Positions 1,946 to 3,421 of a stretch of 6,731 bases of DNA are shown one piece after another; within the stretch, counting starts at the first letter, position 1; the number at the start of each line of letters is the position of its first letter. The notes under the pieces were generated by a model that was not told where the DNA came from, ran no database searches, and saw only the letters and a list, made by a program, of their open reading frames with translations. Location of the stretch: the NCBI GenBank assembly GCA_023136205.1, contig JAGLRQ010000118.1:1-6731 (forward strand). The letters run 5' to 3'. This DNA is from Candidatus Auribacterota bacterium (lineage in GTDB: Bacteria > Auribacterota > UBA6266). A program made the translations under genes and the position numbers.

Positions 1946-3421
1946 ATGAACATAAGATGTCCAATATGTGATAATGACGCTACGATTTATAATGAAAGAG
2001 ATTATAATAATATTTTGGGGATATCGTGTAATTCATGTGGAAAATATGAAATCACAATGAATTTGAAGGACTCATTTAAAGCAGGAAATTTTGATAATAA
2101 CAAGTATATTATTGCTGGTTGGTTGTACGAGACTAAGAACAAGAGAACACACCCATTGCTAAGCAGCCAAAAAATGGCCAATAAGCGCTCTCTAACTATA
2201 GATGAAATAGTTCATAAAAAAGCTAATGTTCCTCATAGTGTAGAAGATAAGCTCAATAGAATGTTATTAAAAATAAAAGAAGATTCAAAAGAAATTGGCG
2301 AAGTAGTATCGTATCTATTATTTTGGGATTATCCTTCTATTTATGCAATGAGTCAAAATGAATTCAAACAGATTATTAGTTTATTGGAAGAAAGAAAACT
2401 TATTCGCATTACAAAAGACAGTAATCAGGCAATAGAGTTAAAGTTGTGTAATGAAGGATATAAAAAGATAGAAATGTTAAAGGATAATAAGGAACAGCAT
2501 GTGAATTTGGATTTAACCAAAGAAGATAAAAAAACCAATATATTCATAAGTTATGATTCAAAAGATAATGATTTATTGAAAGTTTTAGTGTCCGAAATAA
2601 AAAAAAGACCTATATTAAATCCAATTGTTGTTGCAACCAAACCCTCCCCGAGAAAACCATTAGCTAAGAAAGTGGAAGATGGCATTACTGAGTCTAAATA
2701 CTTTATTCCAATACTTACTAATATTTCATATAAAACTCAATGGGTTAATCAAGAAATTGGATATGCTGAAGCACTTGAAACACTTGGAAATATTAAAATC
2801 GTTCCGATTATTGAAAGTTCTGTAAGAGATAAATTAAAAGGATTCATTCATAAAAATGAAGACCTTCCCTACAGGTTTGCACGTTCGGACAATAAGAGAA
2901 AAGAAAAAATTATATTTAGAAAAAAATGTCAAACATTGTTGGATTACATCTTAGATGAAATAACAAAATTAGAAAATGTTAAAAAGCAAGAGAGAATCCC
3001 AGGGGTAAAGGAAAATTTATACGAAGTAGGTGTAAGAGGTTTTAAGGAAAAAGATATAATTGTAAATAGAAAAATAACAAAAGAATTGATGTTTAATCTT
3101 AGAGTGAAGTTATCTACGATCTATCAACATTTTATAGCATATTATTCATTTAAAACTAACACACAAGAAACAATATGGATCGGTTATAAAAACAATCAAA
3201 ATCAAAGGGGCGATCACGTAGGAAAAGATGAATATACAAAAGTTATAAAAAATAACCAAAAAATATCATATTCAATTGATGATAATGTTGTCAAAACGAT
3301 AAAAAAACGATTTCCTAATTTAACTGGCACCCCAGTGATTATCGAAAAAGTACGTTTTAGAGGTGATAGTAAAAATAATGATGTAATCAACTTTTATTAT
3401 GCTTTTTCAGAAAAGGTATAA
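1946..3421 (+). CDS. Multidomain TIR-like protein with four parts: CxxC...CxxC zinc ribbon, a possible winged-helix region, a TIR-like core and an orphan C-terminal domain
   Basis: 491-aa uninterrupted ORF in a region of about 27% GC. Residues 5-31 read CPIC..(19)..CNSC. Residues ~197-335 read TNIFISYDSKDNDLLKVLVSEI...ITESKYFIPILTNISYKTQWVNQEIGYAEAL...IKIVPII. This matches the bacterial TIR pattern: beta-A FISY(S/D)xxD, then hhhhS/TxxYxxSxWxxxEhxxA, then a hhPhh strand. The domain call is by motif only. Confidence 0.7.
   Translation: MNIRCPICDNDATIYNERDYNNILGISCNSCGKYEITMNLKDSFKAGNFDNNKYIIAGWLYETKNKRTHPLLSSQKMANKRSLTIDEIVHKKANVPHSVEDKLNRMLLKIKEDSKEIGEVVSYLLFWDYPSIYAMSQNEFKQIISLLEERKLIRITKDSNQAIELKLCNEGYKKIEMLKDNKEQHVNLDLTKEDKKTNIFISYDSKDNDLLKVLVSEIKKRPILNPIVVATKPSPRKPLAKKVEDGITESKYFIPILTNISYKTQWVNQEIGYAEALETLGNIKIVPIIESSVRDKLKGFIHKNEDLPYRFARSDNKRKEKIIFRKKCQTLLDYILDEITKLENVKKQERIPGVKENLYEVGVRGFKEKDIIVNRKITKELMFNLRVKLSTIYQHFIAYYSFKTNTQETIWIGYKNNQNQRGDHVGKDEYTKVIKNNQKISYSIDDNVVKTIKKRFPNLTGTPVIIEKVRFRGDSKNNDVINFYYAFSEKV

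Follow-up and report, generated by a model that had tools for sequence, protein, structure and literature searches.

The window analysed here, a 6,731-nt stretch of contig JAGLRQ010000118.1 from a Candidatus Auribacterota bacterium (assembly GCA_023136205.1), carries on its forward strand an open reading frame (ORF; 1946–3421) for a 491-amino-acid (aa) protein with a TIR domain. The domain is preceded by a predicted zinc ribbon and a putative winged helix-turn-helix (wHTH) unit and followed by a C-terminal beta-jelly-roll. A database entry 100% identical to the protein (P0001) is present on nine contigs, and NCBI holds the identical protein from the metagenome-assembled genome (MAG) GCA_030639325.1, annotated as 'TIR domain-containing protein [Candidatus Aureabacteria bacterium]'; the TIR domain call itself is therefore already public. 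Along the contig the genes are ordered as an rnf operon, a 23S-rRNA-IVP-type four-helix-bundle gene, a B12-binding protein gene, the TIR gene, an orphan ORF (orf101), a DUF6602 gene, a small lipoprotein-like zinc-ribbon gene and folD-mdh-uppP.

TIR domain and active site

Residues 197–348 of the protein (2534–2989, forward strand) are a bacterial TIR domain of the TIR_2 family, as judged by both family membership and fold. Residues 199–295 score 43.5 bits (E = 5.2e-11) with Pfam TIR_2 (PF13676), whose gathering score is 28, so that a chance resemblance can be dismissed. Of six matching PADLOC families, five are ThsB-type TIR models (best 4e-11) and the sixth is the candidate system PDC-S66. 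Searches of all PDB chains with the protein (phmmer) and with a 15-sequence family profile (hmmsearch) returned essentially TIR proteins only, with Cat1 at the top (3e-5) and TcpB/BtpA, PdTIR, AbTir, a TPR-TIR protein, TLR1/2/6/10/15 and SARM1/TIR-1 among the matches. Membership of NCBIfam Retron_TIR was considered and dropped, as the score of 40.5 bits against a cut-off of 600 reflects the shared TIR alone.

An AlphaFold2 model built on a 61-sequence alignment has predicted local distance difference test (pLDDT) values of 89–98 across residues 197–348 and arranges them in the canonical TIR element order. These elements are beta-A (197–202), alpha-A (205–219), beta-B (224–227, PIVV), the BB loop (228–238, ATKPSPRKP; 2627–2659), alpha-B (239–248, LAKKVEDGIT), beta-C (252–257), alpha-C (265–279, containing W266 and E270), beta-D (about 284–290), alpha-D (291–296) and a long alpha-E (317–348). 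The BB loop assignment is also supported by alignment to the TcpB and AbTir BB loops. In Foldseek comparisons with the PDB, TIR proteins lead the matches; AbTir (7uxu) matches with a template-modelling (TM) score of 0.65 on the target and a root-mean-square deviation of 2.2 Å over 102 columns at 24% identity, and further TIR matches are SPARTA TIR-APAZ, RPP1, RUN1, MAL and RPS4. A preliminary description of the sequence had named flavodoxin-like best matches as the outcome that would count against a TIR. No flavodoxin or CheY-type protein occurs in the top 50 PDB matches, where non-TIR proteins come only from the separate jelly-roll.

The same description had placed a TIR-like core at residues ~197–335, and its coordinates and quoted peptide strings agree exactly with the ORF list and translation, in which residue 197 begins at nt 2534 and 2534–2950 encodes residues 197–335 (TNIFISYDSKDNDLLKVLVSEIKKRPILNPIVVATKPSPRKPLAKKVEDGITESKYFIPILTNISYKTQWVNQEIGYAEAL...LDYI). 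The start of the domain holds, but the domain runs slightly beyond the earlier end, to about residue 348 (nt 2989). In the model, NIFISYDSKD does cover beta-A, as had been proposed, but it leads into the AA loop and not the start of the BB loop. The segment PILNPIVVATKPSPRKPLAKKVEDG, which had been called an atypical Pro- and Lys-rich insert, turns out to be ordinary beta-B (PIVV), BB loop (ATKPSPRKP) and the first half of alpha-B (LAKKVEDG...).

The motif W266-V-N-Q-E270 (2741–2755, tgg gtt aat caa gaa) stands at the start of helix alpha-C, with the E270 codon, GAA, at 2753–2755. By alignment, E270 occupies the catalytic Glu position of NAD+ (nicotinamide adenine dinucleotide)-cleaving TIRs, in agreement with the earlier reading of its W-x3-E context. 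It pairs with the W-x3-E Glu in every alignment (Cat1 'DWCWDE', TcpB 'QWPARE', PdTIR 'EWPQKE', AbTir 'DWTNYE') and, counted along the chains, corresponds to Cat1 E74 and AbTir E208, with W266 at AbTir W204 and S202 at Cat1 S7. We take SARM1 E642 to be the equivalent catalytic Glu position in alpha-C. In AbTir, the E208A mutant is inactive and E208 touches the ribose hydroxyls of an NAD+ mimic, cyclisation depends on W204, which stacks on the base, and the BB-loop residues G174 and S176 are required for activity (10.1101/2022.05.07.491051). In Cat1, the NADase pocket is lined by E74 and S7, and the toxicity that accompanies the CRISPR response is lost in the E74A mutant (PMC12162218). The active site spans two TIR subunits in both proteins (10.1101/2022.05.07.491051, PMC12162218). 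We consider it very probable that the TIR of the window protein is catalytically intact.

A family of TIR proteins with variable C-terminal domains

A HMMER scan of 1.84 billion cluster representatives recovered 562 relatives at E<=1e-3, of which 251 also pass E<=1e-10. The family amounts to ~560 clusters at 50% identity; most hosts are uncultured Bacteroidota, Ignavibacteriota, KSB1 and Chloroflexota, and some are archaea. When 159 family TIR domains were aligned to the TIR profile with hmmalign, E270, Q269 and G272 were each found in 159/159; W266, N268 and Q265 were near-invariant at 158/159 each, and S202 was present in 155/155. A second motif, L297-K-G-F300 (2834–2845), follows alpha-D and is specific to the family and nearly invariant (K298 in 149, G299 in 156 and F300 in 157 of the 159 domains). 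These column counts, in which the BB loop is variable, indicate that the W266/E270 motif is under strong selection.

Across the 159 members, the typical protein has an N-terminal TIR (median N-terminal extension of 1 aa) and a C-terminal extension with a median of 144 aa. This C-terminal extension reaches at least 60 aa in 137/159, which fall into at least 25 BLAST clusters; an N-terminal extension is seen in only 10. The C-terminal domain of the window protein (residues 355–491) belongs to the third-largest cluster, whose 19 members are TIR proteins of 284–310 aa with 32–52% full-length identity to the window protein. Such swapping of C-terminal domains behind a conserved TIR is what exchangeable sensor modules usually look like. 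In the papers and libraries searched, we did not find a description of this partnerless subfamily, with its QW[VI]NQExG and LKGF motifs and at least 25 C-terminal domains, nor of the four-part architecture of the window protein.

Domains flanking the TIR

The N-terminal residues 1–45 (1946–2080) are predicted to form a zinc ribbon, with C5/C8/C29/C32 as its two CxxC pairs and a three-stranded sheet in the AlphaFold2 model (strands 11–18, 23–28 and 32–37; pLDDT about 80). Profile matches are weak, namely NCBIfam ECs_2282_CxxC (4.3e-5, under the cut-off) and Pfam Lar_restr_allev. A low-confidence linker (50–96) then leads to helices at 99–149 and a beta hairpin or wing at 153–176 (pLDDT 55–82). 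The topology of this helical bundle and winged-helix-like unit (residues 99–176; 2240–2473) suggests a wHTH. Residues 1–190 have no phmmer match in the PDB, and residues 99–176 have none in the PDB or Pfam; a word-index homology search also returned nothing for residues 1–190, and it missed the parent protein too. In view of these missing homology matches, model topology is what can suggest a function for the module.

The N-terminal module is also present in a homologue that is 83% identical overall (P0002) and in P0079, where the same TIR is attached to it. Two further proteins, P0023 (50% identity; on a 736-bp contig) and P0138 (beside a Tsp45I restriction-modification pair), have the module but no recognisable TIR. 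A split TIR partner was sought near both, and none is visible at P0138; the contig of P0023 is too short to tell. The P0138 gene (L068, 2292–2897) directly follows the Tsp45I restriction enzyme and its N6/N4 methyltransferase. The C-terminal residues of the P0138 protein (…CFVAMPINKELK…) resemble the start of another domain, and it may be truncated.

The C-terminal beta-jelly-roll (residues 355–491; 3008–3418), recognised from the AlphaFold2 model, Foldseek and the shared cluster, is a candidate sensor. Modelled in isolation, it has a pLDDT of 93.4. Foldseek searches of the PDB and BFVD returned generic jelly rolls only, at TM-scores of about 0.5 and about 10% identity. These include a ~185-aa ciliary doublet-microtubule inner protein that we take to be CFAP20/FAP20, glucuronyl C5-epimerase, GH11/GH12, CBM11, and birnavirus and phage-tail jelly rolls. 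Such generic structural matches were rejected as functional leads.

Genomic context of the TIR gene

The segment at ~1.9–5.1 kb, which spans the TIR gene, orf101 and the DUF6602 gene, has a GC content of 26–36% as compared to 40–48% in its flanks; around the TIR gene the values are 28–33%, and the genes on both sides of the island are housekeeping genes. On the basis of this difference, the low-GC segment between the B12-binding-protein gene and folD was probably acquired as a defence islet; around it, neither convincing direct repeats in the flanks nor integrase, tRNA-like or Rfam features were seen. The three genes are co-directional, with gaps of 54 and 157 nt and no terminator-like site before 4913, and so could be co-transcribed. 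The middle one, orf101 (3476–3781, forward strand), is an orphan 101-aa ORF called as a gene in public annotations. It has no match in Pfam, PADLOC, NCBIfam or PHROGs and no counterpart at the loci of relatives. Its candidacy as an accessory gene of the TIR was set aside, there being neither homology nor conservation to support it.

The third gene (3939–4823, forward strand) encodes a DUF6602 protein with a NucC-like PD-(D/E)xK nuclease fold. It matches Pfam DUF6602 (1.7e-17), the PADLOC model 'PD_DExK, CRISPR-associated' (5e-19) and the NucC effector (9e-9). Aligned to the NucC core in the PDB, D96 corresponds to NucC D73 and K128 to NucC K106; the position of NucC E104 is a conserved Ser (S126) in the DUF6602 subfamily, across 120 homologues. 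The missing acid may come from the conserved residues H38/E41/E47 of the first helix. That Bacteroidota (e.g. Aquirufa) have homologues at 70–80% identity suggests that the gene was horizontally transferred. The single-cassette defence system Damona is reported to be a DUF6602-domain protein (10.1101/2024.07.02.601686), and the gene shares with Damona and NucC the DUF6602 domain and a NucC-like core with D96/K128. It differs from NucC in the replacement of E104 by S126 and in having no CD-NTase or Cas10 nearby.

The adjacency of the TIR and DUF6602 genes is not conserved. The closest TIR homologue, P0002 (83% identical), is followed by unrelated genes, and among 46 GTDB loci with a QWVNQE TIR an all-vs-all BLAST comparison revealed no DUF6602 gene and no other recurrent neighbour. 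Conversely, three DUF6602 homologues at 71–74% identity, found at four loci, adjoin DndB/ABC, DUF2971/AAA_13 or FRG genes, and no TIR occurs at those loci. For this reason, a two-gene TIR–DUF6602 system was rejected as the main explanation. The DUF6602 gene is probably an independent Damona-type defence gene in the same low-GC island.

The neighbourhoods of family members do not point to a partner. Each Pfam or PADLOC family among the 129 immediate neighbours at 38 loci is seen at most three times, and ThsA-like proteins (SIR2, SLOG or Macro) are missing from these neighbours; on the source contig, no SIR2, SLOG or Macro ThsA-type protein lies within 10 kb on either side. A minority of neighbours are defence genes, among them type II and MmeI-type restriction-modification genes, mad2/mad8, DrmMI, SoFic and a second ThsB-type TIR. 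Separately, in three Bacteroidota MAGs (L039 7263–9986, L041 5763–8807 and L042 1337–4090), an MmeI-type type IIG restriction-methyltransferase is followed about 16 nt downstream by a TIR-only family member of 145–148 aa. This combination of an MmeI-type enzyme with a short TIR could be a fixed pairing in a Bacteroidota sub-branch.

The 5' part of the window is housekeeping in content and includes the C-terminal portion of an RnfB-type Fe-S protein (13–738), where an rnfCDEAB-like operon ends, and a corrinoid (B12-binding) protein at 1254–1895. Between them, the ORF at 809–1168 is a 23S-rRNA-intervening-sequence-type four-helix-bundle gene (Pfam 23S_rRNA_IVP, 1.4e-41). It is flanked by a 37–48-nt inverted repeat of GTATTGA heptamers (724–771 and 1200–1240) with up to 100% complementarity over 24 nt, and together the ORF and its repeats look like a small self-contained cassette. 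Homologues of 23S_rRNA_IVP lie 6–7 kb from TIR-family genes at two further loci (L020 and L022), which may be coincidence. Downstream of the DUF6602 gene, 5116–5424 encodes a 102-aa protein in which two CxxC pairs come after a lipoprotein-type signal peptide (…VLISGC) and for which zinc-ribbon matches are only weak (Elf1-like, 7e-6, under the cut-off).

Discussion

Among characterised TIR proteins, AbTir, TcpB (BtpA) and PdTIR share with the window protein the TIR_2 family, the element order and the W-x3-E of alpha-C, and AbTir (7uxu) is the closest single-domain structural match. They differ in carrying an N-terminal coiled-coil, in being discussed as virulence factors and in a BB-loop G-D-S that is R-K-P here, whereas the window TIR is flanked by the zinc-ribbon/wHTH module and the jelly-roll and its family has its own QW[VI]NQExG and LKGF motifs. 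Cat1, a CARF-TIR of type III CRISPR systems, is the top sequence match in the PDB, with E270 on E74 and S202 on S7, but the window protein has neither a CARF domain nor a CRISPR-Cas neighbourhood. Identity as a CARF-TIR or as a SPARTA TIR-APAZ was rejected, since Pfam scans and locus annotation contain no CARF or APAZ domain, Argonaute or cas gene. Thoeris ThsB provides the best PADLOC matches (4e-11) and likewise combines a small TIR with an extra C-terminal domain and an aromatic residue at the cyclase-associated position. In contrast to ThsB, no adjacent ThsA (SIR2-SLOG or Macro-TM) exists here or in the 38–46 family loci, and Pfam ThsB_TIR (PF08937) gives no significant match (E=0.27); the missing ThsA partner rules out identity with ThsB.

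The best working model comes from SpbK of ICEBs1, a single TIR protein in which a non-TIR domain binds the phage portal and triggers E192-dependent NAD+ depletion and defence. Both proteins place a non-TIR domain and a TIR with a conserved Glu in one polypeptide with no required partner. The order differs, as the SpbK sensor is N-terminal and its TIR C-terminal, while the window family usually has an N-terminal TIR and a variable C-terminal domain. By analogy, the window protein most resembles the SpbK-like single-gene TIR architecture of abortive infection, which is a functional class and not a homology family.

We therefore favour, at a probability of roughly 55%, a single-protein sensor and TIR NADase that would act in abortive infection through NAD+ depletion. 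In this model, the jelly-roll, and here possibly the zinc-ribbon/wHTH module too, would bind a trigger, presumably a phage component or nucleic acid. Trigger binding would promote TIR–TIR assembly and create a composite two-subunit active site, as in AbTir and Cat1. E270 would then serve as the catalytic carboxylate in cleavage of the nicotinamide–ribose bond of NAD+, with W266 packing against the nicotinamide and ribose in the manner of AbTir W204, and the resulting NAD+ degradation would arrest or kill the infected cell. The NADase activity and its products, the part of oligomerisation in activation, sensing by the flanking domains and the anti-phage function are all inferred.

Several observations weigh against this model. 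NADase activity and phage defence are extrapolated to family members from other TIR proteins. AbTir G174 and S176, both required for activity there, correspond to R236 and P238, in a BB loop that varies across the family, and the beta-B Asp (Cat1 D33) is T231 here, where most relatives have D, E or N. W266, invariant in this family apart from one domain, is statistically linked to production of cyclic ADP-ribose (cyclic ADPR) and would suit a signal generator just as well. That the jelly-roll acts as a sensor is a guess, because the domain has no specific structural relative. Most family neighbours are housekeeping genes for metabolic or secreted proteins, and the counts of defence genes among them come without a background control. 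Lastly, family members are absent from IMG/VR, INPHARED and PLSDB, and mobility is not evident.

A ThsB-like signal generator, whose cyclic ADPR-type messenger would activate a separate effector, either the adjacent DUF6602 protein or a distant ThsA-type one, appears unlikely. The ThsB models among the PADLOC matches and the aromatic W266 at the cyclase-linked position are what such an enzyme would display, and the co-directional, closely spaced arrangement of TIR, orf101 and DUF6602 up to 4913 would place it beside a protein that resembles NucC, a cyclic nucleotide-activated nuclease. The pairing nevertheless fails outside the window: the downstream genes of P0002 are unrelated, DUF6602 is found in 0/46 family loci and its 71–74%-identical homologues sit at TIR-free loci, and a protein of that domain is reported to act as the single-cassette Damona. 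A ThsA-type effector is similarly missing from the 10 kb on either side and from the 129 neighbours of relatives. The narrower proposal that the TIR and the NucC-like DUF6602 protein constitute a new Thoeris-like pair is, on the same grounds, quite improbable. Equally unlikely as the signal generator is an active TIR NADase with a non-immune role, for instance as a toxin that arrests growth, as a stress regulator or as a DNA-bound regulator that works through the wHTH. The mostly metabolic or secreted-protein neighbours and the absence from phage and plasmid collections are in line with such a role, and the modelled zinc-ribbon/wHTH module may hint at nucleic-acid binding. Set against this are the swapping of C-terminal domains behind a conserved enzymatic head, which is typical of immune sensors, the low-GC island shared with a Damona-type gene, and the several relatives that adjoin restriction-modification or MmeI genes. 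Moreover, the prokaryotic NAD+-cleaving TIRs in the literature examined are immune, secreted virulence factors excepted (PMC12162218).

Two further alternatives concern the chemistry of the domain itself. Plant TIRs are known to use alternative substrates, and the same Glu could in principle act on nucleic acids to give 2',3'-cyclic nucleotide monophosphates, on NADP, or on a nucleoside or nucleotide as in deoxyribosyltransferase-like folds. Q265, N268, Q269, G272 and the LKGF motif do differ from AbTir, Cat1 and SARM1, and the BB loop is divergent; yet the closest relatives in sequence and structure are NAD+-cleaving TIRs, and there is conservation of both S202 (beta-A/AA loop) and the W-x3-E, which in Cat1 and AbTir form the lining of the NAD+ site. 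We regard a different substrate as improbable. A non-catalytic scaffold for protein–protein assembly, comparable to the TIRs of TLRs and MyD88, is very improbable: the profile does match the TLR1/2/6/10 TIRs, more weakly, but the best matches are enzymes, and the conservation of E270, Q269 and W266 over 159 diverged members is hard to explain without catalysis.

Extending the preferred reading of a single-protein sensor and NADase to all relatives, it is possible, if somewhat doubtful, that the QW[VI]NQE TIRs are a large unrecognised family of single-protein immune sensors, with one TIR head and at least 25 interchangeable recognition domains. The window protein would in that case be a rare version with three sensor modules, to which a zinc-ribbon/wHTH nucleic-acid reader has been added.

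In bacterial, plant and animal immunity, TIR NADases are a central theme. At present, our finding chiefly confirms a domain call already in public annotation. To this it adds a well-defined, strongly conserved TIR subfamily in which C-terminal domains are swapped like sensor cartridges and no partner gene is found. If defence were shown, the family would offer a compact single-gene system in which to study the switching of one TIR head by diverse recognition domains, and would extend defence-system annotation into poorly sampled phyla.

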